This document shows positions 6,080 to 51,800 of a stretch of DNA of 64,000 nucleotides, piece after piece. Origin of the DNA: a virus (Duplodnaviria > Caudoviricetes); IMG/VR virus record IMGVR_UViG_3300025389_000011; one strand, 5' to 3'. Numbering within the stretch: the stretch's first letter is position 1; each line of letters opens with the position of its first letter. Below the pieces are notes generated by a model. That model was given only the letters and a program-made list of their open reading frames with translations. It made no database searches and was not told the origin of the DNA. Made by a program: the position numbers and the translations under genes.

Positions 6080-7978
6080 TTATTTTCCTTTATATTGCTG
6101 GTCTACCATCTCTTGATGTAGTCTGTCGCTTGATAACTGTCTTAATGCTCTTACGTTATCAATCGTTGTTTGATTTTTATAAATTTCTTTTGGTTCATAA
6201 AAAGCCGCATCTTTCAAACTAAACCCATACATATCGTATCCAGCTGGTTGTGTTGCCATTAATGCTATACTTACACCATTGGCTGCTAAATCATTTGGTT
6301 CAACATTCTTTTTAACTGTATCTGTCTTTTGTTCTACTGTTGTAGTTTGTATTTCGGGTCTAACTTGATTAATGGGATCAGTAGGATCACCTGCTAATTT
6401 TGAAGTAGCAGTTGCACTTGATGTTAATGTAGGTGAAACTAAATTTAATGCACCTAAATCTGATTTTAATTGCATAGCCTGTAACGATAATGCTTGTTGC
6501 TGTTGCGTTTGTTGTACTGCTTGTTGTGTACTTTGTTGTTGGTTAGCAAAAACTAGTGGTTGTGAACTTAATGCAGTACTTGTACTTGCAGTTACTGGTC
6601 CTAAATTTTTACTTGTAATACTATTATTCACTACAGAATTTTGTGCCTTATAAGGGTTTAGTGCATCTACAGTTGAACCCTGTGCTTGTGACTGTGATGA
6701 AGTATCTTGCGTTGTGGCATTAACTGAATTTTGTGCATTCATGTTGTCTAAGATTTGCATTGCCAAATCTTGTTGTTTGTTGTTCGAACCCGGTTGGCCA
6801 GGCTGTTGAGGACCGGGTTTATTTTCATTTGTACCCCCTGGCTGAGGGCCAGTCTTTTGCTGTTGATTTTGTTGTGTATTAGTAGTTGCTTTAGCTTGTT
6901 GTGCAGATGTTTGTTGGCTAGATCCTGTTTTAGCTTGTTGTGTAACTGATTGTTGATTATTTGCAGAACCTGCTTGTTGTACAGGACTATTACTTGGACC
7001 CACAATAGGTCCAGCTGGTGTTGGCTGTGATTGTGTAGTTGTCGTTTGTGATTGCTGTGTAGTTTGTGTGCTACTTGTATTACTAGAATTACTATTTGAA
7101 ACAATTGCAGGAACACTATTACCTAAAGTATTGATATTTCCTGTACCAGAAATGCTTACACTTCCCACTGTTTGTGAGCCTGTGGATTTATTATCTGTAC
7201 TACTTGTGTCTGTTGTTGCGGCAGCTGTAAAAGTTGCAGTTGATTGGCTGGCAGCTTGTGTTGCTTGATTAGAGACTGTTGTTCCGGGATTAACAGTACC
7301 ACTAGATGAAGTTTCTGCTATACCGTAATTCAAACTTAAACTAGGGTCACGTACTCTTGGACCATAATAACCTGCCCAATATCTATCATCTTGGCCCGCA
7401 AATGCTACAGTTAAACTTCCTAAACTACTTGCTGAATAAATTGAATTAAAATTTTGTGTTCCTGAAATTGTTTGGAAATTATAATTTCCAGTTAGATTCA
7501 TTTTGTAGCTTTCTAACACGCTACCTGTGTTACTGGTTAACCCATAACCGGCATATAAAGTACCTGAAGTTTGCCCCTCATTATCAACAATAAAACTATA
7601 ATTAAATCCACTCACATAAATATTATTTCCTTTACCTGCTAATGCCGTACTGATTGCAATTGCTTGTTGTGCTATACCAAACCCATAACTAAAACGTATA
7701 GTGTTAGTATCTTGGTTCATAGCTGGATTAGGTCCACCACTACAACATTGACCTACCCCTGCATTATTAGTATACGTAATGCCGGACCATCCTGTTTTGT
7801 TGATAAGATTATCTGTAGTTGCCGTACTACTTAGAACCGGTGTTATTGATGAGGTATTTTGCCCAGTAACATTTGAAGTGGTATTTACCACTCCAGTGGT
7901 TAAATCAACTAGTACTTGGCTATTAGAATAACTTGTACACAAGAGCACCAAGCAAAGCGCCAAGGCCAATCTTTTCAT
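6080..7978 (-). CDS. Secreted protein: N-terminal beta domain, long Q/T/S/N linker, compact C-terminal domain
   Basis: Signal peptide from MKRLALALCLVLLC (ATG 7978; the track's start at 8002 adds basic residues). Low-complexity Q-rich centre. Confidence 0.75.
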   Translation of the reverse strand: MKRLALALCLVLLCTSYSNSQVLVDLTTGVVNTTSNVTGQNTSSITPVLSSTATTDNLINKTGWSGITYTNNAGVGQCCSGGPNPAMNQDTNTIRFSYGFGIAQQAIAISTALAGKGNNIYVSGFNYSFIVDNEGQTSGTLYAGYGLTSNTGSVLESYKMNLTGNYNFQTISGTQNFNSIYSASSLGSLTVAFAGQDDRYWAGYYGPRVRDPSLSLNYGIAETSSSGTVNPGTTVSNQATQAASQSTATFTAAATTDTSSTDNKSTGSQTVGSVSISGTGNINTLGNSVPAIVSNSNSSNTSSTQTTQQSQTTTTQSQPTPAGPIVGPSNSPVQQAGSANNQQSVTQQAKTGSSQQTSAQQAKATTNTQQNQQQKTGPQPGGTNENKPGPQQPGQPGSNNKQQDLAMQILDNMNAQNSVNATTQDTSSQSQAQGSTVDALNPYKAQNSVVNNSITSKNLGPVTASTSTALSSQPLVFANQQQSTQQAVQQTQQQQALSLQAMQLKSDLGALNLVSPTLTSSATATSKLAGDPTDPINQVRPEIQTTTVEQKTDTVKKNVEPNDLAANGVSIALMATQPAGYDMYGFSLKDAAFYEPKEIYKNQTTIDNVRALRQLSSDRLHQEMVDQQYKGK

Positions 7979-9050
7979 AAGTGTCATCCTTTTTCGCCTC
8001 ATCTAATTTTGGCATCTTTTGAGAATTTTCTTCCCAAGCTGCCTTAGCCTGTTCACCAATCTTACCTTCGTATGGGCAAGGTGTACCTGCCTGCATCATA
8101 GCATCAAACACACGACGGTCTTGACACATAGTAGCAACTGCGGCAACTTTCATACCCATGTCATATAGTGTTTTAGATAATTTTAATCTTTCACAATTCA
8201 TATCACGAACTGTGCCACCACTACTTACCCCAAATACTTGTGTTTGTACTGAACCAGATGAACCAGTTGTACACAAATCTTGATTACCACCGCTCATCAT
8301 AGCAGGGGCAACTGCTGTTGGTGGAGGTTGAATCACACGTTGTGTAATATCACTTGTATTGATATTGTTGTTAGTCATACTACCACTTTGTATATTTTGA
8401 TTAACATTATTGTTACTACTACTTGTGGTAGCAGTTGTTTGGTTAATGTTATTGTTTGTAGCAGTAGTTGTATTAACGTTGTTGTTATTGTTTGTTAATG
8501 TGCCACTTTGTACATTATTGTTATTATAAGTCATAGTACCGCTGTTAACATTGTTATTTGTATTAACGTTAGTACTCGTTGATGCTGAAGTATTAACGTT
8601 ATTATTGTTATTAGTCATTGTACCATAGTTATAATTTGTGTTAGTAGCAGTACTAGTACTTGTATTAACGTTATTGTTATTGTTCGTCATGGTACCTGTA
8701 TTGACATTGTTATTATTATATGTCATAGTACCAGAGTTAACGTTATTATTGTTATACGTCATTGTACCCGTATTAACATTATTGTTGTTATTGGTATTTG
8801 TTGCCGTTGAGGTACTAACATTGTTATTATTGTTAGTATTCGTAGACGTTTGATTTGCGTTAACCGTAGTTTGGTTAACGTTAGTAACAGTTCCACTATT
8901 AATTGTGTTTACTGTACTAGTACTTGTGCTGTTACTATCTACTAATGAACTAGTAGTATACCCACCCTGATTAATCAAGGTGTCTGCAAAAACATATGGC
9001 CCACACAGGTAAGCAAGGAGTATCCCCCCTGCGAGAATTCTTTTTATCAT
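7923..9050 (-). CDS. Secreted/membrane protein with Asn-rich repeats and a 4-Cys C-terminal domain
   Basis: Signal peptide MIKRILAGGILLAYLCGPYVFA, N-rich repeats, C-terminal CTTG...NCERLK...MCQD...PCP domain, terminal hydrophobic tail. SD AGAGGA. Confidence 0.8.
   Translation of the reverse strand: MIKRILAGGILLAYLCGPYVFADTLINQGGYTTSSLVDSNSTSTSTVNTINSGTVTNVNQTTVNANQTSTNTNNNNNVSTSTATNTNNNNNVNTGTMTYNNNNVNSGTMTYNNNNVNTGTMTNNNNNVNTSTSTATNTNYNYGTMTNNNNNVNTSASTSTNVNTNNNVNSGTMTYNNNNVQSGTLTNNNNNVNTTTATNNNINQTTATTSSSNNNVNQNIQSGSMTNNNINTSDITQRVIQPPPTAVAPAMMSGGNQDLCTTGSSGSVQTQVFGVSSGGTVRDMNCERLKLSKTLYDMGMKVAAVATMCQDRRVFDAMMQAGTPCPYEGKIGEQAKAAWEENSQKMPKLDEAKKDDTYEKIGLGALLGALVYKLF
8370..8850 (-). repeat. 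Coding tandem repeats, ~12-aa unit NNNNVN(T/S)GTMT(Y/N)
   Basis: Unit visible in protein and DNA (36-nt period around 8690-8800), interspersed with NNNNVNTSTST variants. Confidence 0.9.
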
Positions 9051-9118: not shown

Positions 9119-12100
9119 TTATAAATCAATACTTTGTTGATAAATGTTAAATAACCATTCCCAGTCGTAACTTAACATTAATTTTTGCAAGTCTCCGCCC
9201 ACTGAGTCATAGTAATCCATAGCATCATGTGCGCCTTTTTTGCTTTCTTCACCAAAATTACCGTTACCAATATTTAACCAAGCATGTAAACGTTCTTTAT
9301 TTTCATCAGTGCCACTATGTCTTAGTTTGATTGTTTCACGGAAAGCAGTACGCCAAGTGTCCCATGCGCTAGAATTATACATAGCGATACCACAGTTTAA
9401 TGGGACTACTTCGTGTTCACTATCCAATGTAAAGTCTAACCCTCTTACTTTGGTGTTAAGAGTTAATATTTTATTGTTAGCAACAATAGCTTGGTGACCA
9501 TATTCTAATCCATTTACGGGATTAGTTGCATTAAAGATATAGTGTTTTGGTATTTGTAACCTGTCAGGCTGCCAACTAAAATCAAATGTTTTATTCACTT
9601 TTAATTTTGCGTTAACTAAGAAATACCATGGTGTTGATGAGTTATACGCCGCAGTATGTTGACTAAGTACACGACCTTTAATATTGTCCAAACGTATTAC
9701 TTTATTACCTAAGTTTTTAGTAACACTTAACAAATGCTCATAATTTGCATCAGCACATGCTTCACCATTACTTAAAAAGATAATATCTAACGGATTAGAT
9801 TTTAATAACTTAGGTGACCTAGTGATATAAGGATAATCATATAACTCACGCTCAACATAATTTTTAGCCTCACTAGGGACTGTAATTCTAGTGCCGCCAG
9901 TACTTTTAATAACAATGTTTTTGTGGTCAGGTGCCCATAAACTTATAGGTTCATTTTCATCTTTTAGATTGATTAAGTTTTCATTATCACCTGTAATAAA
10001 CTCTGCATACGGAAATGTAAAGTCATAGTTAGACAACTCAACGTGGGTATCTTCTTTTACCAATATAACTGGAGCAGATAGTCGTTTAACACGTTGATGT
10101 TGATTGAAGTTAACTTTTTCATAATCCTCTAGTCTAATCATATCATTAACAAGACTTAAAAATTTATTAACATCTACTAAGAACGTATCACCAAACTTTT
10201 GCTTGTCGCTAGGGAACACATGCAGTTGATCCTTAGCATATGGATCGCAAATATAACTAAAATCAAAATCTTTATAGTCACAAATGCTACTGCAAATCCA
10301 AACATAATGTTCTTTTTTAGTTTCTAATGTCTTTAAATAGTTTTTAAGTGTCTGTAAGTAACTGTTATCAAACTTAATGATAGTTGTTGGCTTAAGAGTT
10401 TTTTCAACGATAGTGTCATTTACAGCCCTGAATTCTTTTTTAAAGTTTCCATGATTACCATGGTCTATTAACACAACATCATACAAACAATCAGTGGCTA
10501 CTGCTATTTTCTTTTTAACAAAATTCAATACATTCAAGTGTTCAATCACTTTTACATATTTTGTATCTTCAGGGAATGTTTCTTTGTTTACCATGAATGT
10601 AGTTCCCCAATGACTCCATTGAGTTCCAAATACATGCACCATTTTCATTTGCCATGGGCTAGGATAAAAGTCAAATTGAAAATCAGTATAGTCTAACTCG
10701 CTGTTCAATATCCAACATAAATTGGTTTCCGATTTAGTTAAACAACGAGTGATGGTGTCTACCCAGCTGTTTAAATAACGTGTTTTTTGAATTTGCGGAT
10801 ATCTTAATTTGAGTGCGTTATATCTGTTTGTTGACTCAAGATTACCCCTATCCACAAAGAACATACTTAAGTTACTATCAATTTCTACTGTTTGACTGTC
10901 AACGTAATTATATTCACGGTGACCTAACATGTACATAGGAGCGTTAACATAGTATGTCTGTGTGTTCATACTATATTCATTACCAAATACATTTATGTGT
11001 AGAAAGTTTTCTTCGTTAGGTCTCCAACTAAAGTCAAACTTATCGTAACTTAAGTCAGGATTGATAGCCCAAAACACCTCATCTTGATGCTCATTAATTA
11101 AATCCTCAAGTGTTGTTTTAATCTTGTAATGTTTTACAATACTACGTGTGATTTCTTCAGTACGTTTCATAAAAACAACTTCGGCATCTTTTAGTACGTC
11201 AGGGTCTGCGTATCTGGGTCCGTTATCTTCCCACTGATAAATTTGCAACGGGCTATGTGGATTGGGTCTCCAACTAAAATCAAACGTTTCTAAATCATCA
11301 TTGTTACTAATATGCCAATACTTTAAGTCTGGTCTTGGTGTAGCTACAATATCTTTAATGTACTTGAATTCTGTAGCACCCTCTACATAGTATTCTAATG
11401 TGGCTTCAACTGTGGCGTCATTCCATTTGTTTCCAAACACATAGATATAAGGAGGATCCATTGGATCAGGTCTCCAACTATAATCAAAACTTTCTACAGG
11501 AATTAATGTTTTCCATTTGCTCATGTCAGGCAACGTTGATGCTACTTTGTCATGCATGTATTTCTTTTCAGTAGCACCTGGGCAATGATACTCTACTGTT
11601 GGTTCAAATTCTGCGCTGTTAAACTTATTACCCCATACATAAATGAATGCTGGTTCACGTGGGTCAGGTCTCCACTTAAAGTCAAAACTATTTTTATTTA
11701 CTGGAATAAGAATATTCCATTTATCCCATTCAGGTTGCACATCAACTTCACCGATATACTTGCGTTCAGTAGCGCCCGGGCAATGATACTCTAATGTAGC
11801 CTGTAACTCAGCGTTGATATATTTGTTACCCCACACATAGATGTAATCAGGCTCACGTGGATCTGGTCTCCAACTAAAATCAAAATTTTCTACGTTTTGT
11901 AGTATCTTCCAATTTTCTATAATAGGCAATACTTCAGCAGGTTCTGCCATGTATTTCTTTTCAGTAGCACCGGGGCAACGATATTCTATTGTTGGTTGTA
12001 GTTCTCCAGCAATCCATTTGTTACCCCATACATAAATGTATGCTGGTTCTCTTGGATCAGGTCTCCAACTCATATCAAACTTGTTTCTGTCTACAGGTTG

Positions 12101-14431
12101 ATATTCTATCCAACGTTCATATTGAGGGACAACTTCAACATCGCCCATGTACTTGCGTTCACTTGCTCCTAGACAATGGTATTCTATTGTGGGCTGTAAT
12201 TCACCTGCAATCCATTTATTACCCCATACATAAATGTACGCTGGTTCTCTTGGGTCGGGACGCCATGTCATATCAAAGTCTACAGGTTCTTGATAAACAC
12301 GCCACAACTCTTGTTCAGGTAATACTTCAACATCACCCATATATTTGCGCTCAGTTGCGCCTGGATAATGATATTCTATTGTAGATTTTAATTCACCGGG
12401 TATCCATTTATTACCCCATACATAAATGTATGCTGGTTCACGTGGATCTGGGCGCCATGTCAAGTCAAATTTCTTTATATCAATTGCCTGAACCATTGTC
12501 CATCGTTCAAATTCAGGTACCACTTCTAATAGTTCTTCCATAAATTTGTATTCTGTTGCACCTTCAACAATATATTCAAGTGTGGGAATAATATTCCCTG
12601 GCACATGTTTGTTACCCCATACATAAATATAGGGAGGGCTTGTTGGATCCGGTCTCCATGTCATGTCAAATTTAGTTTTATCAACTTCTGAAGGATGTAG
12701 TTTCCAATTCTTACTAACAGCCAATTTAACATCTTGCGACATGTGTTTGATTTGTGTTGCACCTGGTACAATATATTCTACAGTGGGTTTTAATTCACTA
12801 CTATAATGTTTATTGCCCCATTGGTAAATGTATGGTTCTTCAGTTGCATCAGGATGCCAGCTATAATCAAAATCTAACACATCTTCATGTGTTACCCAAT
12901 TTTCTGTTGTTGATTGAGCAATTGCTTTAATCGTGTCAACATACTTGATAGGCGAATCCATAGTGCATCCAACAGCAGTAAAGATAGGTCCACCTGTTTT
13001 TTGATGCTGTGTACCAAACTGATATATCATTGGTTCATCTTGTATATCAGGATGCCAACTAAAATCAAAACCTTCTGTGATACAGCCTTCAGGTATTGCC
13101 CAATGATCCATATCAACTTTGGCAGTTGCTGTCTGTACATCAATATACTTAAACTCAGTTGCACCCTCTACAACAAAGCGTGGTCCACCTGAATGTTGCC
13201 ATTGACTTGGAAACTGATAGATATATGGATCTTCTGTTAAGTCTGGATGCCAACTAAAGTCAAACGTACTTCTATCAATGTTCATTGGAATTTGCCAATT
13301 TAAAAATTGATAGCAAACCACTAGTGATACCGGATTATCAACATATTTTAACTCAGTAGCACCTTCAATATAGTATTGTGGGCCATCTGTTTTTTGCCAT
13401 TGTGTTCCAAATTGATATACATAGGGAGGGTCATTGGGATTTGGTTCCCAACTATAATCAAAGCTACCTTCTGCAACGTGTACAGGTACTCGCCAATTAT
13501 CCATACAAGGTAAACGTATTGCACGTTCTTCCATGTACTTGATTTCTGTTGCGCCTTCTACAACATATCTAACACTTGCTTTATCTTCTGGCTTATTCCA
13601 TTGATTGCCCCATACATAAATGTAGGGAGGACTTGTTGGATCGGGTACCCAACTAAAATTAAATGCCAACTTATCAATATCTTCTAGTATTTCAAAATCT
13701 TCTGGTCTACGTACTAATTCAGGAGTAAAGTCATCAATATACTTACGTTCGGTGGCACCTTCTACATGAAACTCAATCGTTGGCATAATTGTGCCAGGGT
13801 ATTGATTGTTACCAAACACATAGATATAAGGAGGGCTAGTTGGATCAGGTACCCAACTAAAATCAAATTTAATAACTGGATGTATTATTTTAAATAGTCT
13901 TGGACTTTGTGCAAGTATTGCTATTTTGTCTATAACATATTTTCTATTGATAGCACCGGGTACATGATATTCTACCGTTGGCATGATAGCACCACTGTGC
14001 CATTGATTACCAAACACATAGATATAGGGAGGGTCACTGGGATCAGGATGCCACTTAAAATCAAACTGCTCTCTATCAATATTTTCTAGTATCTTCCAAT
14101 TTTTACTTATTTCTAATTCTTTGAATTGTAGAGGGTCTACATCAGCCCTGTAAACCATTAAATAATCACTACGATTAGGACACAACCATGTACCACTGTC
14201 TTTTTGATATTGACTGGGCCAGACATTAATATGATCTTGTGCCCATACATCTTCATCTGGTAATAACTCAAAATCAAAGTCCCAGTCAAAGTCACGATAA
14301 TCACACCGTTCGTTGATTATCCAAAAATGTTCTGTAGTGGCCTGTGATAATGCATCTTCAAATGAAGTTGCATGTTTTTCTCTAGGGTGGGCGTTTGGTT
14401 TTTCGCCATAGTAAAATACATCTCTTAGCAT
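9119..14431 (-). CDS. 1770-aa repeat protein with degenerate GT-A-like domains
   Basis: About 15 repeats FD(F/M)(S/T)WxPDPxxPxYIYVWGNKW...PGATExKY. The C-terminal domain aligns by eye with 36550-37503 (DIIFLS, H-x-AA, NGLxYG, WRxxFRExxK), but its DxD position reads NAK. Confidence 0.85.
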   Translation of the reverse strand: MLRDVFYYGEKPNAHPREKHATSFEDALSQATTEHFWIINERCDYRDFDWDFDFELLPDEDVWAQDHINVWPSQYQKDSGTWLCPNRSDYLMVYRADVDPLQFKELEISKNWKILENIDREQFDFKWHPDPSDPPYIYVFGNQWHSGAIMPTVEYHVPGAINRKYVIDKIAILAQSPRLFKIIHPVIKFDFSWVPDPTSPPYIYVFGNNQYPGTIMPTIEFHVEGATERKYIDDFTPELVRRPEDFEILEDIDKLAFNFSWVPDPTSPPYIYVWGNQWNKPEDKASVRYVVEGATEIKYMEERAIRLPCMDNWRVPVHVAEGSFDYSWEPNPNDPPYVYQFGTQWQKTDGPQYYIEGATELKYVDNPVSLVVCYQFLNWQIPMNIDRSTFDFSWHPDLTEDPYIYQFPSQWQHSGGPRFVVEGATEFKYIDVQTATAKVDMDHWAIPEGCITEGFDFSWHPDIQDEPMIYQFGTQHQKTGGPIFTAVGCTMDSPIKYVDTIKAIAQSTTENWVTHEDVLDFDYSWHPDATEEPYIYQWGNKHYSSELKPTVEYIVPGATQIKHMSQDVKLAVSKNWKLHPSEVDKTKFDMTWRPDPTSPPYIYVWGNKHVPGNIIPTLEYIVEGATEYKFMEELLEVVPEFERWTMVQAIDIKKFDLTWRPDPREPAYIYVWGNKWIPGELKSTIEYHYPGATERKYMGDVEVLPEQELWRVYQEPVDFDMTWRPDPREPAYIYVWGNKWIAGELQPTIEYHCLGASERKYMGDVEVVPQYERWIEYQPVDRNKFDMSWRPDPREPAYIYVWGNKWIAGELQPTIEYRCPGATEKKYMAEPAEVLPIIENWKILQNVENFDFSWRPDPREPDYIYVWGNKYINAELQATLEYHCPGATERKYIGEVDVQPEWDKWNILIPVNKNSFDFKWRPDPREPAFIYVWGNKFNSAEFEPTVEYHCPGATEKKYMHDKVASTLPDMSKWKTLIPVESFDYSWRPDPMDPPYIYVFGNKWNDATVEATLEYYVEGATEFKYIKDIVATPRPDLKYWHISNNDDLETFDFSWRPNPHSPLQIYQWEDNGPRYADPDVLKDAEVVFMKRTEEITRSIVKHYKIKTTLEDLINEHQDEVFWAINPDLSYDKFDFSWRPNEENFLHINVFGNEYSMNTQTYYVNAPMYMLGHREYNYVDSQTVEIDSNLSMFFVDRGNLESTNRYNALKLRYPQIQKTRYLNSWVDTITRCLTKSETNLCWILNSELDYTDFQFDFYPSPWQMKMVHVFGTQWSHWGTTFMVNKETFPEDTKYVKVIEHLNVLNFVKKKIAVATDCLYDVVLIDHGNHGNFKKEFRAVNDTIVEKTLKPTTIIKFDNSYLQTLKNYLKTLETKKEHYVWICSSICDYKDFDFSYICDPYAKDQLHVFPSDKQKFGDTFLVDVNKFLSLVNDMIRLEDYEKVNFNQHQRVKRLSAPVILVKEDTHVELSNYDFTFPYAEFITGDNENLINLKDENEPISLWAPDHKNIVIKSTGGTRITVPSEAKNYVERELYDYPYITRSPKLLKSNPLDIIFLSNGEACADANYEHLLSVTKNLGNKVIRLDNIKGRVLSQHTAAYNSSTPWYFLVNAKLKVNKTFDFSWQPDRLQIPKHYIFNATNPVNGLEYGHQAIVANNKILTLNTKVRGLDFTLDSEHEVVPLNCGIAMYNSSAWDTWRTAFRETIKLRHSGTDENKERLHAWLNIGNGNFGEESKKGAHDAMDYYDSVGGDLQKLMLSYDWEWLFNIYQQSIDL
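11200..14110 (-). repeat. About 15 tandem ~65-aa (~195-nt) W/D/P-rich coding repeats
   Basis: FDxxWxP(D/N) motif counted 15 times. The central copies (about 11600-12650) are near-identical in DNA (accccatacataaatgtatgctggttc). Confidence 0.9.
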
Positions 14432-14436
14432 ATTAC

Positions 14437-14443
14437 TACTTAT
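14437..14443 (-). promoter_or_regulatory. Late-type promoter variant ATAAGTA, 5 nt before the ATG of the 1770-aa gene
   Basis: ATAAGTA-GTAAT-ATG with no SD; same spacing as at 2938 and 42804. Confidence 0.45.
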
Positions 14444-15921
14444 GAAAGTACTGTTATACCATAAAGTTTTTCAAATCTATCTGCATCATTACGGTCATTG
14501 ACCATGGGCTCACCACGTATGTTTAAACTTGTGTTTAATAACATAGGGCAACCGGTTAGTACATACCATTTTTCGAGTAGTTCTCGAATACCTGATCCAT
14601 CTTTAGGAACAGTTTGGATACGACTAGTGCCGTCATGATGAACGATAGCAGGAAATAAGTCAGGATACCTACAAGTACCGACGACTTGCATATACCTACT
14701 GTTATGCCAATTGAGAGGCATAGTAAAATAATCATTAACATACTCTTCCAGAATAACTGGGGCAAATGGTCTAAATTTTTGTCTACGTTTGATTTCATTT
14801 ACTTTATCCTTAATTTCATTTCCTCTAGGGTCTGCTAATAAACTACGATTGCCTAACGCTCTTGGTCCAAACTCTGCTCGTCCGTTTGCAACTCCCACGA
14901 TTTTACCATTAAGTAAAATATCAAGCAACTTGTTAGTAGGATAAGCCCCGGTAATATCAGTACCGAGAAAAGCATTATTCCAATTAACACGCTTACTATA
15001 ACCCAAGCCGGCACTGCCAAGACTATTCCCAGCATCGCCAGGATTAGGCATAATCCAAATGTTTTCATAGTATTTTCCTAAAATTCTATTTGCTACACAA
15101 TTAAGTGCTACTCCCCCACCATATACCAAATTTTTACTTGGTCCCAACACCTTTGCAAGTGTCACCACATTGGTTATTAATTGTTCAGTTAGCAACTGAG
15201 TACTTGTTGCCAAATCCATTGGATCAGCATTATGTATAAATTCTTTATCAACACCCGTGTGTAAATTTTCTTTAAATGTTATTGTAAGACTATCTTGTAG
15301 TAACTGTCTATGTAACTGGGCATAGTGTTTATTTTCACCATATGCTGCCATACCCATAAAAATATATTCTTCTTCGTTGGCTTTTAACCCAACGCTATCA
15401 GTCATGGCACTATAAAACAAACCAATACTATGTGGGTATTTTTTACCCCATAATTTTTTATATGTTGCAACACCATTAACATAACGTGCGTCCCAAATAC
15501 TTATAGTATCAAACTCACCTATCGCATCAATTACAACAACGGTTGCATCAACAAAACTGCTTGTTTGAAATCCACCAGCCGCATGACACAAATGATGTCC
15601 ATGTGTATGTATCTTTTTATTACCTAATAACTTCATATTTTCCTTGCCAATGATGTTACTAGCAAACAAACTACTAAGTTTAGGTTGTTCCCCGCTACGC
15701 AATTGTCTTAGAAATTTAATGGTAGGACGTTCATAGTAGTGCAATTCATAATCACCCTTAACATATGATAGTGCATCTAATATCAATTCACGATTTAAGT
15801 CTTTATCGTTTTTGATTTTACTATAGCGTTCGCTATGACCAGCGAACAAAATATTACCACTATCATCTATTACACTCAATGCACCATCATGAAATCCACA
15901 ACTAATGCCTATGTAGTTCAT
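14440..15921 (-). CDS. O-carbamoyltransferase, NodU/CmcH/TobZ family
   Basis: GISCGFHDGA, SERYSKIKND, HHLCHAA, VIDAIGE, EEYIFMGMAAYG, GGGVALNCVAN, GRAEFGPRALGNRSLLADP, RQKFRPFAP, LNTSLNIRGEP. Start taken at MNYIGIS (ATGA overlap with upstream gene). Confidence 0.92.
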   Translation of the reverse strand: MNYIGISCGFHDGALSVIDDSGNILFAGHSERYSKIKNDKDLNRELILDALSYVKGDYELHYYERPTIKFLRQLRSGEQPKLSSLFASNIIGKENMKLLGNKKIHTHGHHLCHAAGGFQTSSFVDATVVVIDAIGEFDTISIWDARYVNGVATYKKLWGKKYPHSIGLFYSAMTDSVGLKANEEEYIFMGMAAYGENKHYAQLHRQLLQDSLTITFKENLHTGVDKEFIHNADPMDLATSTQLLTEQLITNVVTLAKVLGPSKNLVYGGGVALNCVANRILGKYYENIWIMPNPGDAGNSLGSAGLGYSKRVNWNNAFLGTDITGAYPTNKLLDILLNGKIVGVANGRAEFGPRALGNRSLLADPRGNEIKDKVNEIKRRQKFRPFAPVILEEYVNDYFTMPLNWHNSRYMQVVGTCRYPDLFPAIVHHDGTSRIQTVPKDGSGIRELLEKWYVLTGCPMLLNTSLNIRGEPMVNDRNDADRFEKLYGITVLS

Positions 15922-16760
15922 TTGATATACTCTTTGGTTTTTTCTGCCCAATATTCGTGATGTATAGGTCCAAGATGACTTTTGTCTCTAGCCAAATCTT
16001 TTTCGATATCAGTTTCAGTATATTGTTTGTAAAATCTATCAAATACTCTACCAAATTGTGGTATAATTACTGCACTGGTTAAATCCATGTGTTTCAAAAA
16101 TTCGTATGTGTTACCGTCCCACGCTGAAAGATATATTTTGATATTTCTTTCTTTGGCAATTTTTTCTGCCAAATAAATATCATTCCTAAGGTTCTTGTAC
16201 ATATCTTCCTCAGGTGTACCTTTATACAATGATTCAACATCAACTTTGTATTTTTTTAACATAGGATCAGTAGATTGAGCTGATGACATATACAATATTT
16301 TATGTGTCTCTGCGTTAATTTTAGCTATCTGTAATCGCATATAGGGAGATAACACCAATATTGCATGTTTCATGGTTACATGTTTAGATATAATTAAAAA
16401 TAAATCTATGATACTTTTAGGTGACAATCCATTCATTGCAAAGTTCAAATGCGACATGTTTAATTGTTTAGCCAATAATGTATGCCACAACATGTCTACG
16501 GGTAATCCCAATCCTGCACAATAGCTACAACCAAAAATACCAATATCAGTTGTCGAAGGTATTTCATCGCTATCCATGCGAAATCCAAATTTATTATAGT
16601 TGTAATTAAATTTTGAATATTTCTTTTCCCATTCACTGGAAAATTTCATGTCATCGAGGCTAGCAAATTCAAGTTGAAATGAACTAGTCGCAGTTGTGTA
16701 AGAAGATACATCACTTATATTTTTTGAATCTAATAAATTCAATTTAGCTATACTTTTCAT
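15918..16760 (-). CDS. SGNH/GDSL-like hydrolase-fold protein
   Basis: YNKFGFR, IFGCSYCAGLG (block I), NFAMNGLS (block II), RDKSHLG (DxxH-like block V). Confidence 0.6.
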   Translation of the reverse strand: MKSIAKLNLLDSKNISDVSSYTTATSSFQLEFASLDDMKFSSEWEKKYSKFNYNYNKFGFRMDSDEIPSTTDIGIFGCSYCAGLGLPVDMLWHTLLAKQLNMSHLNFAMNGLSPKSIIDLFLIISKHVTMKHAILVLSPYMRLQIAKINAETHKILYMSSAQSTDPMLKKYKVDVESLYKGTPEEDMYKNLRNDIYLAEKIAKERNIKIYLSAWDGNTYEFLKHMDLTSAVIIPQFGRVFDRFYKQYTETDIEKDLARDKSHLGPIHHEYWAEKTKEYIK

Positions 16761-36549: not shown

Positions 36550-37503
36550 TCACCAACCTTCGATTCTGCGAATGACTTCCATTTCTGTTACCAATGGTCC
36601 TAAATTACGTGCATCTGCTTTATAGTGGCGTTTGAAAAACTTACTTTGTTCTGCGGTATGCATACACATAGGTAAACCTAACTTAGCACTTAAATCATCT
36701 CCGTACTTTTTAATTAACTGTAATGGATCTTCATTTTTAACATTTTCCCACATTGCAAGATAGTTATCAAACCATTGAACTTCAATATGATTCCAGTCAG
36801 TCAGCATTGTCATGTACGTTCCCATACGTGCGCCCATGATTGCCCATTCTCCGTTTTCGGCATCTAATCCAATGTTATGCCAAATTGTTAGATTATTCAT
36901 ATTACGCATGGCTACAGTTTCTTTGAATACATCTACTGAGGGTACCGCACCTTTGTCTAAACACATCTTAACACCTTCACGGAATCCAGCACGCCATGCT
37001 TGGAAGGGAGTTTGATTTGGATATGTAGTTGAATAACAATCATGCATAGCCCAGTATAGATTATCTTTACTATCTAAACAAAAATCAGCAATACGTGTTA
37101 TATCACCTTCTGTTTGATTTTCATGTGTTTGCATTTCACGCACGTATGTTTTTGTCCAACTACTCATACCACCGTTACCATAACGTAACCCATTGATAGC
37201 ATTGATAGCTTTCCAACGAAACTGTGCTTTTTTAAATGTTTCCTCTTTATCAGTAAAATCTAGTTGAATGTTGAAGAAATTTTCTTGTGGCATATTATCG
37301 CCATCAATAAGAATAAAACGTTCTGTTTCACTGGCTTCACCTGCGGCTTTATGTGCGGCATCACTACCTTTGACACCGTCAACACGTTTGGCCCAAGGTA
37401 CCATGTTTTTAATCTTTAACCAGAATTCTTCTTTCTGTGGTTCATCATAACTAAGATAAATGCAATCTAAGTCTGCTACATCAATAATATCATCCGAGTT
37501 CAT
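36550..37503 (-). CDS. GT-A-like putative glycosyltransferase
   Basis: DCIYLSYDEP, RVDGVKGSDAAHKAA, FILIDGDN (DxD), NGLRYGNGG, AWRAGFREGVKM. Confidence 0.6.
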   Translation of the reverse strand: MNSDDIIDVADLDCIYLSYDEPQKEEFWLKIKNMVPWAKRVDGVKGSDAAHKAAGEASETERFILIDGDNMPQENFFNIQLDFTDKEETFKKAQFRWKAINAINGLRYGNGGMSSWTKTYVREMQTHENQTEGDITRIADFCLDSKDNLYWAMHDCYSTTYPNQTPFQAWRAGFREGVKMCLDKGAVPSVDVFKETVAMRNMNNLTIWHNIGLDAENGEWAIMGARMGTYMTMLTDWNHIEVQWFDNYLAMWENVKNEDPLQLIKKYGDDLSAKLGLPMCMHTAEQSKFFKRHYKADARNLGPLVTEMEVIRRIEGW

Positions 37504-42812: not shown

Positions 42813-45800
42813 TTAATTTATACCGCCTCTTAGGAAATCTGCGCCCTGAGTATATGCAATCTGTAACGGATCACCGTTAACTGTGTCATAATATCCTGGG
42901 ATAGGATTCCATGTTTCATGATATAAAACATCTGTCATCATGTTAGTTGTGTTTATTCCATACACAGGAGTGTATACTGGTATGTAATTTTGTTCTCCAG
43001 TACCATTTGTTCCCCTAGATAATCCAGTGACTGTGTTGGTATTTAAATCACAGTACTCAAATCCAATCTGTTCTCCGTTAATAAACACTAATCTACCAAT
43101 ACCCACTGTAATAGTTAATGAGTCACCAATAGACACTTGGCTGTTTATCTGCAATATAGGAGCTGTATCAACAATTACAGTTTTGTAACTAGTTTGATTT
43201 AACTCTACTCCTGTAGTGTTGTTATAGACATATATGTAACAGATGTCATTTTTATTAGCACTTAAACCAATATAATAGTCCCCGTCAGTTGCGGCCGCAG
43301 GGCAAGTTGCATTTTGTACAATACTGTTTGTAATTTTTTTAACATCATTAAAATGTATTATACTATCCGTGTATTGCAATGGTTGTGTTAACCAAGTTCT
43401 ATTATTTCCATTAGTTCTGAAAACATTTCCTTGATTTGAAGCAGACACGTTTAACAAATAAACTTCTTCGTTTGGTGTAGCACTTGGCATCATACTTGTA
43501 ATAATAACCTCATCACCTGTTTGAATTGTAGTTAATATGCTTAAATCGTTATATGGGTTTAGTATTAACTTACTTGAAGGAACACGATACCCGTTTATTG
43601 TTACCCATAATCTATCTACGTTAATTTGTACAAATTGTGACACAAACACTTTACCTGTATCAGTTGTTAATACAAACTCACTTTGATTTGGATATTGCTT
43701 TGTGCTAATTGTAAATTCTTGGTCTGCTGTGGCAGTTCCTGTTCCACTACCATAACCTGTTGCAATGAATGTAACGCCAATTGTGTTAGAACTTGCGCCA
43801 ACTGCGGTGAAATTAGTAGTACCTAATGTTACAATCGTATATTGATTTCCAATAATAAAGTTTCCTGCAGTTGTAATAGGACTTACTTCATAAACATAGT
43901 ATTCTACGTCAGCTTGAATACCACCTAAAATATTGTCACCAAAAGTTGAATTTACAGTAGTAAAGTATACAGGAGTATTAGGTATTAATCCTTGTGTGCT
44001 TACCACTGTTATTCTATTACCAGTAGAATTTGTTGCTGTTGTGTTTGTGTTTGAAAGTGTGAACACTCTATCTAACCAAACATAACCATCACCTATGTAT
44101 GTTGAACAATTAGTTACAGGGAAGTTAGGGGCATTTAATGTTGGAGTATATGCTTGTAGATACAAATCAATAATTTTACTTGTAACTATTTTAGCATAAA
44201 ATACATTATTATTCAATTGTACGGAACCAACAGTACCATCTATACGTATCAATGAGTTTTCAGCTAAATTATGGTCAATTCCAGTTGTCACACGAATAGC
44301 TGGCTGACCTCCTGCATATCCAACAATAGTTCCTGTACTATAATCAGTCAATTGAATTGTTGTACCATATTGGTCTGTGATTGTAAAACTTGTATCGTCA
44401 ATAATTGTGCCTACAATATAGTATTCACCAGTTGTACTGATTCCCCCATATGTGCCAGGCGTTTGAGCTTTGAATATAATAAATTGTCCCGGTACCACTG
44501 GGTGTGTCGCATTATAAACAATTGCATTTGTTCCGGAAATTGTTTGAGATACTAATACTGTTGAACTTGCAGGGGTAATGGCATTGTCGATATTAACAAT
44601 ATTAGCCACAGTTAAACCATTCAATGAACCGTTCATTGTACCAGTATCACTAGTAACTGGGAACACAGCACCACCAACTTGAGTTGAAATAGTAAAGTCT
44701 GTAGAATTTAATATTTGAAGAATATAGTAAACTTGTCCGGCGATAATTCCACCAAATGTAGGTGATGAAAACACGATTGGGCTGTTGACAGTTAAATCTG
44801 CCGTAGTACCTGTACTCAAATGTAAGTAATTAAATTGTTCGTCATATGTTACAATTTGTGGATTATTTTCATCATATGTATATGTATTTGGGCTATTTTC
44901 ATCGTATGTAGCCAATGTATTTACAGTAGCACCAACTACAACTTCAACAAATACTGAGCCAGGACTTCCAGTGATACCATATTGAGTATTTAAATATTGA
45001 CGGTCAGTTAAGTTATATGTAGTAACTGCTACCGTTGAGTTTAATAGGGGCGGAGTATAGAACAAAATAGTATTTGTTGAACTATTAATTGAATATAATC
45101 CTATTGTTTGACGTAAGCCATTAATCTCTACAATTGCATTGTTTGGATTGTCACCACCGCAATAGTTTACCAAATTAAATGTTGATTTAGATGCATTACC
45201 AAAGAACACTTGTGTTTGTGGTATTGTGTAACCATATTGTATAGGAGATGTTTGTCCCAATACAGTATAGCTAATATAATCTACTGCTGTGTTGTATGTT
45301 TGTGCAAGAATAATCTTAGCGTTAATTCCATTATCTGCTATACCTAATGCAAAGTCGTTAGATATATAAGTTGCTACACCTGATTCAGTTGACACAACAA
45401 ATACTGGACCACCTGCAGTCTCACTAATGGTGATTCTATCGTATCCTAATATTTGTTTAACGTAGTATGTTATGTATGGAGTAATTCCACCAAAAATACC
45501 GGGACCAAACGTAATTGGCATATTGGGTACAAAGTTATATGTTGAATTAACAATTATTAAATTATCAAAAGAAAGTGTATTTGTAACTATACCAGATTCA
45601 CCCAATACTAATAAATTACCATTATGGTATACCGCTGGTGGAGTCCAAACAACACCATCACCATTTTGAGAGATAGCTTTCATGCTACCACTTGCTGTAG
45701 TTAAATCAAAAGTAACACCTGCTGTACCTGTAGAAAGATTGATACTTGTTGATATAGTAATTCTATTTGATATGTCATCAATTGTTTTTACGTAATAAGG

Positions 45801-48800
45801 AGTTTCTATTGCAACACCACCAAACACAGTTCCTTCAAAAGTTATTACGTTGTTTAATGCAATATTAGCCACTGTATCAAGCGTTATTTGATTTGTGGTT
45901 GAATCAGTATGTGTTGCAGTTGCAATGTAGGGTTGTGATCCTGGTCTGATAACCCCTGAACCTTGATAGATACTTGCACTATAATTTGCATTTAAGTAAA
46001 TTTCTTGGAAGCCAGTAGTTTCGTTTGTTCTAATTGGATTGTTACTCGTACTAGATTTAACCAATTGGTCACCGTTACCAGTTTCATACAAATCAATACG
46101 TAATGAATCTGCGTTGCCAGGGCTTGTAAATGACAATGAGTTTGTCAATATGATTAATTGATTTACCCAATCAACGGTATAGAATCCGTTTTCTTCGTAA
46201 ACTCTTGTGCTTAAACCAGTCGTATAACTTGTAACATATACAGCTAATTCGCTTGGAGTTGTAGCTATACTTGCAAAACTATATTCAGTTTGAGTACCGC
46301 TAGTTGCCTGTATCTCAATTGATTTAGTGCCATAACCTAGGTTTTGATATACTGTGGCGTCCCAGTTTGTACCAGGACGTGTAGCTACTGTCATTGTTAA
46401 TGTGTCGCTTACCACACCAGGTACCAATTCTTCTGGACCATAACCACTAGTAAATGAGTCACCTTGTACATCGTATACAGTAGGTGGATTTCTAAATATA
46501 CTACCTATTGTCCAACCAGATGTGTTACCCTGTAATACCGTGTTGTTATCTCCTACAACAAGATATTCATTAGTATCACTATTGTATGTAACACTTCTTA
46601 AGTTTTGCGTTGTGCCTGAAGTTTGTGTAGTCCAAGTTGTACCGTCAACTGTTCCGTACACTATGGCACCATTATCACCTACAGCCACAAATCTATTATT
46701 AATGTTGTCCCATATAATTTTGTTTAAATTTTCAGTTGTACCTGATGTTTGTACAAACCAAGTATACGTGTTAAATGTAGTATAAATGCTACCGCCTTGG
46801 CCAACAGCAACTATAGTATCAATATTACTTGCAACAGAATTAAGTCCATATTGAGTAGTAAAGGTTAATGGACTCCATGATATACCATCTCTACTAGAGA
46901 AAATAATTGCGACATTATTGATAACTAAATTAGTTGAAACTTGCCCTGAACCAACAGCAATAAATCCAGTGAATCCTGCTGTGTTTGCATATGTTACTCC
47001 TGTCAAATTATTTTCTAATGTGCCAGTAAATTCATAACGTTGTTTCCAATCATTAATATCTGTTGCAGTAACAATATTTTTTCCTACTGCAACATATAAA
47101 CCATTTGCATATGCAATACTGCTTAATCCAGTTGAAGGTACTACAGTTGATGGAGTACTAAAGGTTGTGCCATCAATACTTATTAATATTGGAGTAGCAC
47201 TATTGTTTCCTGTTAGTACATATTCACCATCAACATATATAATGTCATATAAACCAATTGGTGTATTAGCTAACTGTAGGCTAGACCATGTTACTCCGTC
47301 AACACTAGCATTAATTGATGAGTTGTTACCCGAATCACTTGTTGCGATATAAGCATGGTTGTTATATAATACTGCTGATAAATTAATGCCAGTTGGGTAA
47401 AATGGTTGGTCTTGTAAGATAGTATCTAACGGATAATTATCAGCCGGTGCAAATGCATTACCTAAATACGTACTATTTGGATAAGTAATACCTGTTACCA
47501 ATTGTGTTAAATCTACACCTGGCATGTCAACAGTTGGTTGATAGTAACCAATAATTCTATCAAGCGCATTAAGTTTACTTGAACCTGAAGTTAATAATTC
47601 CCATTTACCAAAAATGAAGTCAGCATCATTATTACTTACAATACATTGGTAAACATTATTATTGTACTTAACAATACTACTGTTAAAATAGAATGGTTCT
47701 GGTAATAATAAGTAATCACCTGACTTAGCCATTGTCATTGATCCAGTTGCATTTGTTGTAATTGTAAATGCACTACCACCGATACTTGTACTAATAGTTA
47801 TAGTCGTTGATGTAGGTTTAGTTAGAATATAATATGTTTGACCAATTGTTATACCGCCAAATACAGTTCCCGTAAACACAACAGGATCATTGATATTAAA
47901 TTCAGTATTGCTTACAACAGTAATAACATTACCAGTGGTTGCAGTTTGTGTTGCAGTTGTACTTGTTATTCCTTTATATGGTAAGTTTTGTCCACTCACT
48001 GATACCTTCAAGTTAGGATCGCTGTATAGTGCAATTTGATTTACGTCTACTACATCTACATAATATTTGTTGTCCAATCCAGGTGTTACACCTGTTGCAA
48101 TAGTTCCAGTAATACCACCTGTACTATTAATTGCGGACACAGTTAATGTTAAATCATTTGCCGGTGTAGTTCCTCCTACTGAAGTACCAGGTATTACAAT
48201 GGTATTGTTTATTGCGTATCCAACACCTGCACTTGAAAATGCCACATTGTATCCACCTAAAATATAACTAACGTCAAAACTTGCATAGTTACTTGGATTA
48301 ATATATTGTGTTAATGAAATTGTATTAGTTGTTGCATTTGTTAAAGTGTTGCTTAACACAACATATGGGTCACCTGTACCAGTCATACTACCTGTATCGT
48401 TAGATACTGATAACGGTAATGAGCTTCCAACTGAAGTAGCTATAGTAAATCTTCCTTCACCGCTTGGAGGGCTATTATCAATGCTATGTACATAGTAAAT
48501 TACATTTAATAAAACATTACCTAATGATGTTCCTGAGAAGTATATCGGCATGCCAACATATAATACATCAGTTGAATTAGTACCATTAACTGTTAACCAA
48601 TTTCCAGTGCTACTAGTGCTTAACACCTGAACTGAAGTTACTCCAGTGTTTACGACTGTGTATTCTGTTCCAGTAGTTAATCCACCAATATTACCACTAA
48701 CATTAAATTGCATGTTAGTATAAATGTTGGTTATTCCAGGTCCAGTTTGACTCAAGCAAACTCTATTAACTGTTGCCAATGTAGCTGTAAGATTTATGTT

Positions 48801-51800
48801 CAATAAACTAGATGTGTTTAATGTACCATTTACACCGGTATACACACCTGAAGTATTATATGCTGTAAATTGTTGTCCTTGAATTTGTCCAGGATTAATA
48901 CTTAAATTAACATTCAACGTCATTGAGCCAGTACCATTAGTTAATTTTAATGTATTAGCTTGGCTTGTAAATGTAAGAAGTGATGTGCCAAATACAGGAT
49001 CTAGTGGTGCAGTTGCAGTAGTTAATGTTACTACAGGGCCGTTGATACTTAATGACACAGAAAATTGAGTGTTCTTTGTCCCAGAAAATAACTGGCTTAC
49101 ATAATAAGTAATACCTGTTTGCAGATTACCCACAGCAGTTCCAGTAAATATAATAGGTGTATTTACAGACAAGCCCAACGTACTATCGCAAGTGATTGCG
49201 TTGTTGCTTGAAGATGTTGCCGTAACGTTTACCATTAATGGGTCAGCACTTGTAGACATTGTAAATGTCTGTGGATCAACTACAGTTGTTACATAATAAA
49301 TTTCATTAGCAACAATTCCACCAAACACATCACCTGTAAAGAATATTGGAAGACCAACATAGAAGTTTGTTGTTCCATTTTGACCTGTTGGTGTTAACTC
49401 TACTGTAACATAATTAGTTCCAGCAGTAGTAGCTGTTGTATTTCTGATGCCATCATAGTTGATTGTTAATATTGCTTGATTTGTAACTTCACCAGGATAA
49501 GCTAATAATCCCGCTGTTGGCACAGTAGCAGATGTTAGTGCAAATGTTGAGCCAGGGTTTCCATTACCATCTATTGAAGTTGAAACAGTAAAGCCTGTTG
49601 CCTCTAAGACACCTGTTGTTAAATTAGGAAGCTGTACCAATGATTTTACATAATATGTTGTATAATTACTTAAATTACCAACTGCTTCTCCAATAAATTG
49701 TATTGGCATACCTACGTAAAAACCAAGTGTAGCACCAAGAGTTGGAGTAACAGGATTACCACCAGTACTTGCTGTTATACGAATTGTATTTGGATATGAC
49801 GATCCAGAACCATATGTTTGTACAGTATTTCTAGATAGTGAAGACCAAACTAATGTTTGTTGATTTTCTACAGCTAATATTTCAAAAGGCGCGCCTTGGG
49901 CACTAGCAAGTATATTAGCAATATTAGGTTGAGCATTATCTAATAAAATACTTGAACTTGAAACCAATTCACTATTTGAATATGAACCTGCATAGAATGC
50001 ACCGTAATACCCACCTGGTTGCCAATCAATAACTTGACTGTTATACGTTGTTCTATCAAATTTTAATGTTATGTTATTTTCTCTAACTGGTATAGCACTA
50101 GTTACGCAACTTGCAACAGCACCTACACTAAAATTCTGATATCCAGTACCTTGCGAATTTAATTTCACACGATTGTTGTCGTTTACACAATTCAAGTATG
50201 ATTCATATAACGCAAACGTTATATTTGGATATGATTCCAATACGTTAACATAATATCTTTCACTAGGAATTAAACCTTCAATTGGTTCTGACCCTGTTTC
50301 TGGTTCATATATGATTAAGTCACCTGATTGTAGCAATGGTGATTGTAAATCAATTGTGTTATTAGTTGTATTAACTTGACTGCTGTTAACGCTTACAACA
50401 AGTGCAGGATCAATACTAATGCTAGGTAATATTGCATAACCTTCACCTGGATTATTAACTGTCACCCCAATCACACGATCCAAATTCATAATTGCAGTAA
50501 ATGATGCAGGAACTCTTGGAGCAGGGTATATTGATGTATCAATGTATGCTCTAATCTGCGGAGGATTACTGTAACCCCTACCGCTGTTCAATACCAATAC
50601 TGCTGGTAAATTAATGTAAATTTTTGAACCAGGTAGATGTTGACTAGCACCACTGTTGTTCAATCCACGTGATAATCCCAATAATTGATTTGTAGCAATA
50701 TTCAAATCAGAATATCCAATTTGTTCATTATCAATAGTTATAGTACCGTTGACCGGAAATCCGGTTACATTGTCAACATAACAAGATGTTGTATTAACCG
50801 CCATATACGATTGCAACGTGGATATTAAATAATTATCTTGTCCAACAATACTTAATCCATAATTATTAAACCACTGATTATAACTTGTTTCTTGCCATAT
50901 TGAATCTGTGGGTAAATATTGATTATCACCGCTGGCATTATTGTATACCAATTCAGGAGTTATAAATTGTTGAACACTTGAATTCCATTGAGCAGGTAAA
51001 TCAAAGTCAGTAATATCACCCTCAAATACGTCAGTACCTGTATACGCAAATAAGAAATCTTTGATAAGAACATGGTATGGTTTTACCTCGTTTAAATATC
51101 CTTCTAAGAATATTTCATTATCACTTTGGAAAACTTCTAATGGTAACAATTCACGCACAGTATGTGTAACATCAACCAATGATGTTTTGTTCAACCATGG
51201 TAAAAAGTTTTGATTTTGTACTGTTTCAGCTTGGATATAATTGAATAATAATATTAAACCTACGTTTCTCTCTACTAATAAATTGTCAGGAAGTTCTTCA
51301 TTCAATGAACGTATAATATATCTAGTTTCTTCGCTAGGATATGTATCATATGGTGCTGTGTCAAAATAGTTGTTACCAAATCCAATGGCGTTGTTTGCAT
51401 AATCATATATTGCACTACTGATTTGAACAGTACCATACTGTAAACCAATACGTACCCATCCTAAGGTAGCATCTAATACATATGTTTCTTGGAAACCGTT
51501 TCCGTTTTTCAACACACTTGCAATAGTTCCTACAGGAACATTAAGAGTTGATAAATCTGCATAGATAGGTACTTGCACACTTGCTCTTGTATTGTCATTG
51601 TAGCCAGGAGCCCACCAATTAACAGAATTTACATAATTTGCAACATTGTAGAAAGGTAATCCAGTTGAAGGATTAATTGGACCAACTTCATACAAGAAAA
51701 CACTATTGGCAATTTCATTGAAAGGATATTGAATCAATAATGCATTTGCACCAGTAATATAGTTATCCAATGCTCCCAATCTGTCATAGAAGAAACTTTG

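Follow-up and report, generated by a model that had tools for sequence, protein, structure and literature searches.

Organization of the P0001 locus

We analyzed a 64,000-nucleotide stretch of viral DNA (IMG/VR record IMGVR_UViG_3300025389_000011; hereafter the window), focusing on a gene on the minus strand at 9119-14431. This region is a single intact open reading frame (ORF), P0001, of 1770 amino acids (aa). Its product is ordered as an N-terminal cap (N), 14 tandem half-modules, and a compact C-terminal head in which the domains follow one another as D0-DA-DB-DX-DC (Table 1). Several of these domains resemble the GT-A fold of glycosyltransferases (GTs), whose hallmark is a metal-binding DxD motif. 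The N-terminus, MLRDVFYYG, is kept in homologues, and the assigned start codon is therefore correct. The IMG/VR contig around the window is 103 kb long with an estimated completeness of 29%, which implies a jumbo phage of approximately 350 kb.

Table 1. Positions of P0001, its domains and associated genes in the window.
Feature	Position (nt)	Strand	Residues of P0001	Description
P0001	9119..14431	-		ORF of 1770 aa; no transmembrane segment; net charge about -90
N domain	14099..14431	-	1-111	Reduced GT-A-like cap; β4 FWIIN, then E-R-C-D-Y
Array of 14 tandem repeats	11318..14098	-	112-1038	Hidden Markov model (HMM) E 1e-20 to 3e-32 per unit; AlphaFold2 (AF2) pLDDT 91-97, three units modelled
Partial 15th repeat	11231..11317	-	1039-1067	First half of a unit; HMM positions 1-29, E 8e-9
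D0	10874..11134	-	1100-1186	Half-module, intermediate between repeat and full GT-A-like module; hhalign 99%, E 8e-18
DA	10487..10873	-	1187-1315	Mini GT-A/nucleoside triphosphate-transferase-like; β1 FFVDRGN; N-S-E-L-D at DxD position
DB	10076..10486	-	1316-1452	Second mini GT-A-like domain, paralogue of DA; S-S-I-C-D at DxD position
DX	9800..10075	-	1453-1544	β-rich linker domain, always ahead of DC
DC	9122..9799	-	1545-1770	GT-A domain with helical tail; paralogue of 36550-37503
N-A-K	9605..9613	-	1607-1609	At the DxD position of DC; Lys conserved family-wide
Carbamoyltransferase gene (NodU/TobZ type)	14440..15951	-		Pfam E 3.5e-48 and 1.1e-30; conserved upstream neighbour
P0122	36550..37503	-		Stand-alone 317-aa DC paralogue, intact D-G-D

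The protein is strongly acidic. The repeat region alone carries a net charge of -59 and is rich in Pro (9.6%), Asp (7.1%), Tyr (6.8%) and Trp (4.7%), as had been remarked in a first-pass annotation made from the sequence without database searches. No hydrophobic segment was found across the whole of P0001 (maximum Kyte-Doolittle value 1.14). Strong acidity together with the lack of a transmembrane segment disfavors a DNA-binding or membrane role, and we rejected DNA binding on the net charge.

P0001 contains 14 tandem repeats

A motif scan combined with a repeat HMM located 14 full units in tandem, each 64-68 aa long, followed by a partial unit, in agreement with the approximately 15 tandem repeats of about 65 aa of the first-pass annotation. 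The match of every full unit to the HMM (Table 1) excludes chance as the source of the 14 units. The consensus, W..(I/V)D...FDF(S/T)W.P(D/N)P...YIYV(F/W)GN...E..T.EY..PGATE.KY, describes a unit of 66 residues made of a β4 strand, a FDFSWxP loop and then a β-hairpin. Conserved positions (F12, D13, W16, P18, I26, Y27, G30, Y44, A49, K53 and Y54) are mainly aromatic residues, Gly and Pro, with a single Asp and a single Lys, and each unit has an invariant Trp, Tyr and Lys. The Ser/Thr ahead of the invariant Trp is lost in the modules of distant relatives. Cys is not conserved in the repeats, and the NKW part of VWGNKW is specific to a subtype.

The first-pass annotation had described the central copies as near-identical in DNA, which our comparison did not bear out. 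The two most similar units, which begin at aa 655 and aa 719, agree at 82% of DNA positions and 84% of protein positions over 50 codons, and Tandem Repeats Finder reported no DNA array of the repeat period in P0001.

The repeat is half of a mini GT-A module

With a profile built from 137 units, hhalign matched the repeat to D0 (Table 1), to DA (94.9% probability, E 4.6e-8) and to DC (82.5% probability). The alignments always begin at β4 (W-x-I-L), pass the FDFSWxP loop and enter the next hairpin (YIYVWGN / HVFGTQW). The domain HMMs also match one another, DA against DB at E 7.6e-13 and D0 against every repeat at 1e-7 to 1e-11. Because the alignments start from β4 and the domain HMMs cross-match, the repeat corresponds to the half of a mini GT-A module that follows β4. 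Two earlier suggestions are thereby upheld: that the repeat was amplified from a GT fragment, and that FDFSWxP is the motif found after the DxD position of the GT-A-like domains, where it recurs in D0, DA, DB and DC.

A further pattern, CDY...HV(W/F)P(S/T)..Q..G(D/S)(T/G), is common to N, DB and the modules of distant relatives, in which arrays of whole 120-130 aa modules replace the half-modules (10 in P0339, 6 in P0376). Profile homology shows P0001 to be a chain of modules with a single common ancestor, a small GT-A unit of the nucleotide-sugar-transferase fold. The evolutionary series is clear, leading from stand-alone DxD-bearing GT-A proteins through arrays of whole mini-modules to arrays of half-modules that act as a new structural repeat. 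It is an uncommon and well-documented example of an enzyme fold that was shortened and then amplified into a rod.

A conserved lysine replaces the DxD motif of DC

DC and the stand-alone protein P0122 are paralogues, as first noticed from their sequences (blastp E 1.4e-6, HMM E 4.8e-16), and DC also matches ORF 348 of the Ralstonia phage RsoM2USA (RsoM2USA_348; HMM E 5.4e-34). Proteins of the P0122 / RsoM2USA_348 type are true DC homologues, with the invariant residues E13, Y100, G101, D122, R154, E155 and K158 and the helical tail in common. They are single-domain proteins of 233-317 aa with D-G-D intact, whereas DC is fused to a module array and has x-A-K, its N-A-K aligning with the D-G-D of P0122 and RsoM2USA_348. 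The column pattern [FNPW][AGSP][KR] was present in 55 of 56 cluster representatives; the sole exception was P0376, with D-A-D. Residues E13, Y100, G101, D122, R154, E155, K158 and W174 (DC numbering) are invariant in DC and the D-G-D paralogues.

Since the replacing Lys is kept in all but one representative and the paralogue-invariant residues are retained, the DC site looks like a remodelled but constrained pocket rather than the outcome of neutral or simple decay. The first-pass annotation had spoken of decayed GT pieces and a catalytically dead protein. Its observation that a canonical DxD is missing from DC, with N-A-K instead, holds; decay and catalytic death are not established, and are partly contradicted by the conserved Lys, by the retained residues and by an E-x-D in DA.

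Metal-independent GT-A enzymes in which basic residues replace DxD-Mn are well established, GT14 C2GnT-L being an example. This enzyme and the vaccinia H3 envelope protein (5ej0) have, as DC does, a GT-A fold without the canonical DxD-Mn site. A Lys in place of the metal would fit a metal-independent GT-A enzyme and a binding-only pseudo-enzyme alike, and the conserved DxD-to-Lys change allows metal-independent chemistry and pseudo-enzyme binding to be separated by a direct, simple test.

The D-G-D-bearing paralogue is the more conserved of the two proteins. More than 8000 proteins matched P0122, of which the best 120 were 316-318 aa long and 79-97% identical; homologues of the repeat protein were 41-78% identical, far less conserved than P0122. 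P0122 is probably a core enzyme of the phage clade, and it is annotated nowhere.

Two relatives are of separate interest. P0376 (L007:8001-11372), the only family member with a canonical D-A-D in DC, has DxE-like motifs in several of its upstream modules and is possibly a form that is still active. RsoM2USA (L002, locus 9649-12708), a cultured jumbo phage, encodes stand-alone DC-type GT-A proteins of 233 aa and 317 aa as ORFs 348 and 350, and ORF 348 keeps D-G-D. A giant ORF of 7.6 kb precedes both by a few kb, recalling the layout of the P0001 window, and all three are annotated as hypothetical.

Predicted structure of the head and the array

Two regions were modelled from alignments of approximately 100 homologues: the C-terminal 686 aa, with a predicted local distance difference test score (pLDDT) of 85 and a predicted TM score (pTM) of 0.71, and the N-terminal 330 aa, with an AF2 pLDDT of 87. 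Repeats within the N-terminal model scored higher (Table 1) and were predicted as short β-strands and ordered loops. For the 14 half-modules the prediction, at high confidence, is an ordered array that is β-rich and non-globular.

VIA-align resolved the C-terminal model into three GT-A/nucleotidyltransferase-like domains, with the Rossmann-like α/β/α architecture of the GT-A fold. Its best Foldseek matches were Mimivirus R699 (9dyt; E 3.8e-6), Escherichia coli K4 chondroitin polymerase (2z86), human LH3 (6fxk) and PmHS2 (8viw), spanning E 3.8e-6 to 1e-3, and vaccinia H3 was among the structural matches of the N domain. P0001 resembles all four enzymes in having several GT-A domains per chain and resembles R699 in being encoded by a virus. 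It differs from them in being only 7-12% identical, with no sequence-profile match, and in its mini-modules of approximately 130 aa, a DC without DxD and an array of half-domain repeats.

The first-pass annotation had asked for a fold comparison that might reveal an unrelated known domain. None emerged: the terminal head matched multi-GT-A enzymes, and the three-unit model of the repeats found nothing in the PDB by Foldseek at E ≤ 0.001. An exhaustive VIA-align comparison of that model with 48,161 chains returned no row spanning residues 106-330, a result from three units on which we claim no new fold. We rejected a β-propeller, as copy number runs from 1 to 34 without a closure rule and no propeller matched.

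Annotation searches were equally silent. Pfam, PHROG and PDB sequence searches with the whole of P0001, single domains and profiles gave no match, and no Pfam GT family matched any domain up to E 10, nor the distant relatives. Pfam codes attached to a few homologues (SH3_CYT4 and DUF6611) were rejected as artefacts of summed repeats with 0 significant stretches. An ESM Atlas feature search retrieved only viral "hypothetical protein" clusters, a homology search with DA-DB only unnamed proteins and fragments, and our literature search no description of the family. P0001 lacks the family-profile match of canonical GT-A enzymes, their DxD motif (apart from a possible ExD in DA) and the D-G-D of its own stand-alone paralogues. 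Among known systems, multi-domain GT-A proteins and variable-length repeat stalks come nearest to it. We assigned its family to the GT-A superfamily, in which both its half-domain repeat and its architecture are new.

Another reading makes P0001 a working glycosyltransferase or polymerase that has several sites and contains its own ruler. DA, DC or both would be active, DC without metal through Lys1609, and the rod would bind the growing glycan or fix the distance from an initiating or terminating N cap to the head, so that repeat number would set chain length. Such an enzyme would account for the two-domain GT-A polymerases and viral multi-GT enzymes at the top of the Foldseek matches, and for the position of the gene within a sugar-nucleotide tailoring operon (see below). 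The S-E-L-D at the DxD position of DA may be an ExD, and many invariant polar residues are kept alongside FFVDRGN; DC keeps every residue invariant across DC and P0122 except the DxD itself. Yet the mini-modules have no acceptor sub-domain of the kind found in complete GT-A enzymes, and a canonical DxD is absent from N (N-E-R-C-D), D0 (N-P-D-L-S), DB (S-S-I-C-D) and DC. Neither the failure of every GT family HMM nor the dispensability of DA or DB in many relatives is expected of such an enzyme, which we consider improbable.

A phage family with a variable number of repeats

Among 5.8 billion proteins, over 1118 homologues were found; they are 973-3098 aa long and unnamed, and many lie on contigs of 340-370 kb. 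Complete genomes of 335-364 kb are represented by L020, L037, L051 and L077. When 1.84 billion cluster representatives were searched with a profile, only 176 clusters matched. The family is carried by 377 IMG/VR loci, and 185,579 prokaryote species yielded no more than 4 loci, each of them in a bin of metagenome-assembled genomes (MAGs). Among cultured phages RsoM2USA was the sole match, in the DC domain only, and the repeats were found in none. The family is essentially phage-restricted, and its definition here adds a large group of phage proteins that had no annotation at all. The MAGs of the four cellular loci (L101-L104) carry the labels Haliscomenobacter (two loci, on contigs of 148 kb and 183 kb), Fischerella and Legionellales; binning has probably placed jumbo-phage contigs with bacterial ones here, and the labels could also hint at hosts.

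The main architecture is N-R(1 to 23)-[D0]-DA/DB-DX-DC, where R is the repeat; in distant members whole DA/DB-type modules form the array. DX and DC are the constant core of the family, DX-DC ending nearly all the full-length architectures listed, and the columns of the C-terminal 686 aa average 61% identity. In BFVD, relatives 804 aa and 1076 aa long have models that agree with the head at TM scores of 0.85 and 0.83, and their length leaves little room for more than a few repeats.

Counting repeats across relatives, a check proposed with the first-pass annotation, revealed high variability: the 121 close homologues carry between 12 and 34, and wider relatives as few as 1-2. Across those 121 homologues, protein length fits the line 70 x repeats + 694 (r 0.987). 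The unit order of P0001, ABCDEFGHIJKLMN, is preserved in close relatives, where particular units or blocks have multiplied locally (BBB, IIIII, MLML and DEFA x n are examples), and the array expands by duplicating blocks of one, two and four units. Units are 96-100% identical in some relatives, compared with at most 82% DNA identity in P0001. These expansions and near-identical units show that copy number is actively evolving in the family, although the P0001 array itself is old.

Variable-length stalks and rulers are familiar from other systems, among them the bacterial "periscope" stalk proteins and the coiled-coil chain-length ruler WbdD. The P0001 family shares with periscope/SHIRT stalks and with WbdD a tandem array of a small fold whose number varies among close relatives, here by block duplication, implying a role in setting length or spacing. 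It departs from periscope/SHIRT stalks in that the repeat fold is GT-A-derived, the protein is phage-encoded and the units of P0001 are diverged rather than near-identical in DNA. P0001 also has neither the signal peptide nor the anchor by which stalk proteins are secreted and attached to surfaces. SHIRT-type stalk proteins have been described (bioRxiv 10.64898/2026.10.24.761521).

P0001 is the last gene of a radical-SAM and sugar-tailoring operon

P0001 ends a long co-directional block that holds 13 radical S-adenosylmethionine (rSAM) genes, P0122 and other small unknown proteins. The stop codon of the carbamoyltransferase gene (Table 1) lies 8 nt before the P0001 ATG. We evaluated the neighbourhood in 62 IMG/VR loci. 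A carbamoyltransferase gene was present no more than 20 nt upstream in 36 of these and no more than 800 nt upstream in 12 others (48 of 62 in total), the usual gap being 1-12 nt, and in 13 further loci an rSAM gene was the nearest recognized neighbour. The rest of the operon encodes sugar chemistry (epimerases, aminotransferases, UDP-glucose dehydrogenase and the carbamoyltransferase). Loci L003 and L005 share the layout of the window. Downstream neighbours of the family genes vary between loci. The link between the P0001 family and the sugar-tailoring/rSAM operon is robust, and in the window the P0001 gene is the last of a late, fibre-adjacent operon of this type. As the conserved end-piece of such operons in abundant freshwater jumbo phages, P0001 provides a handle on the product of the operon and its destination.

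The distant relative P0339 (1504 aa; L006:1-12515, on a 118 kb sediment metagenome contig), whose 10 tandem whole mini GT-A modules have CDY, HVWPT and GGDT motifs, has at least six rSAM/SPASM genes immediately ahead of it and DegT aminotransferases as neighbours. Because a relative this distant has both, the pairing of an rSAM array with a module array is older than the freshwater jumbo-phage clade.

Recurrence beside rSAM/SPASM genes, P0339 included, together with the invariant Trp, Tyr and Lys of each unit, could also mean that FDFSW and VWGNKW, the repeat motifs rich in aromatics, are substrates that the neighbouring rSAM enzymes cross-link or otherwise modify, an alternative raised in the first-pass annotation. 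We consider this very improbable. The repeats are predicted to fold autonomously (pLDDT >90), with their aromatics as likely core residues; the conserved Cys, leader-peptide logic and short length of ribosomally synthesized and post-translationally modified peptide (RiPP) precursors have no counterpart in a 1770-aa protein predicted to be folded, and the NKW portion of VWGNKW is subtype-specific. Nor does the number of rSAM genes follow the number of repeats: the 13 rSAM genes of the window accompany 14 repeats, whereas in L003 and L005 the 10 kb displayed ahead of the homologue contain a single rSAM gene, together with genes for sugar epimerases or a UDP-glucose dehydrogenase. The remaining operon genes, devoted to sugars, also argue against this reading.

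A proposed sugar-handling head on an evolvable spacer

Taking conservation and neighbourhood together, we infer that P0001 presents a head with an atypical sugar-handling function on an evolvable spacer rod and works with the rSAM/glycan operon; we give this reading a probability of roughly 40%. The head would still bind the nucleotide-sugar or glycan of the operon through a metal-independent basic site, and would either transfer the sugar or merely hold it. The acidic array may be a rigid spacer of evolvable length that determines how far the N cap stands from the head. P0001 would then act in the infected cell as a device that positions or scaffolds the glycan pathway.

Several observations weigh against this proposal. 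The functional part draws entirely on conservation and neighbourhood, and no Pfam, CAZy-type, PHROG or PDB sequence match ties any residue to a known catalytic role. The conserved repeat positions look mostly structural, with no sign of 14 sugar-binding sites. A rod tens of nanometres long would be out of the ordinary for an enzyme of the cytoplasm and would suit a virion appendage better, and fast change in repeat number is typical of surface and host-interaction proteins.

The last two points lead to a different destination for the protein, the virion, where P0001 could be a structural fibril or decoration with the repeats as rod and a head that either works as a lectin-like adhesin or carries or anchors the glycan of the operon, the enzyme fold being reused as building material. 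The gene lies in a late co-directional block behind a gene for a 6337-aa protein and tail-fibre genes, the array is long, ordered, acidic and non-globular, and the rapid copy-number change with near-identical units in some relatives suits a surface structure. Reuse of GT-A folds for binding is known from vaccinia H3, itself matched by the N domain. Other features do not fit well with this role. The monomer model is already confident, whereas fibres typically form intertwined trimers; the C-terminal head is the most conserved part of the protein, whereas receptor-binding tips usually vary; and the gene is tightly coupled to that of an enzyme, with downstream neighbours that are metabolic rather than structural. 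P0001 matched no structural PHROG or Pfam family and its repeats no fold in the PDB, an absence that does not exclude a structural role. We regard a virion appendage as possible but unlikely.

A bolder version of the spacer idea is that the array is a molecular ruler made of enzyme-fold fragments, in which 66-aa units gained or lost through block duplication would tune the length or spacing of a heavily tailored phage glycan, or, equivalently, that the array forms a new class of glycan-bearing virion fibril. This we consider doubtful; on either view, a new structural repeat that stacks on itself would have arisen from half of a GT-A domain.

Other genes of the window

P0001 is followed by two unannotated ORFs on the same strand, one of 375 aa at 7923-9050 with a weak match to phrog_20531 and one of 640 aa at 6080-8002. 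Both recur together with a ferritin-like gene downstream of the family gene in at least eight related loci. Upstream of the glycan operon, 42813-61826 on the minus strand is a single ORF of 6337 aa that contains no copy of the repeat. Next to it comes another ORF, at least 708 aa long, which nearly reaches the edge of the window.

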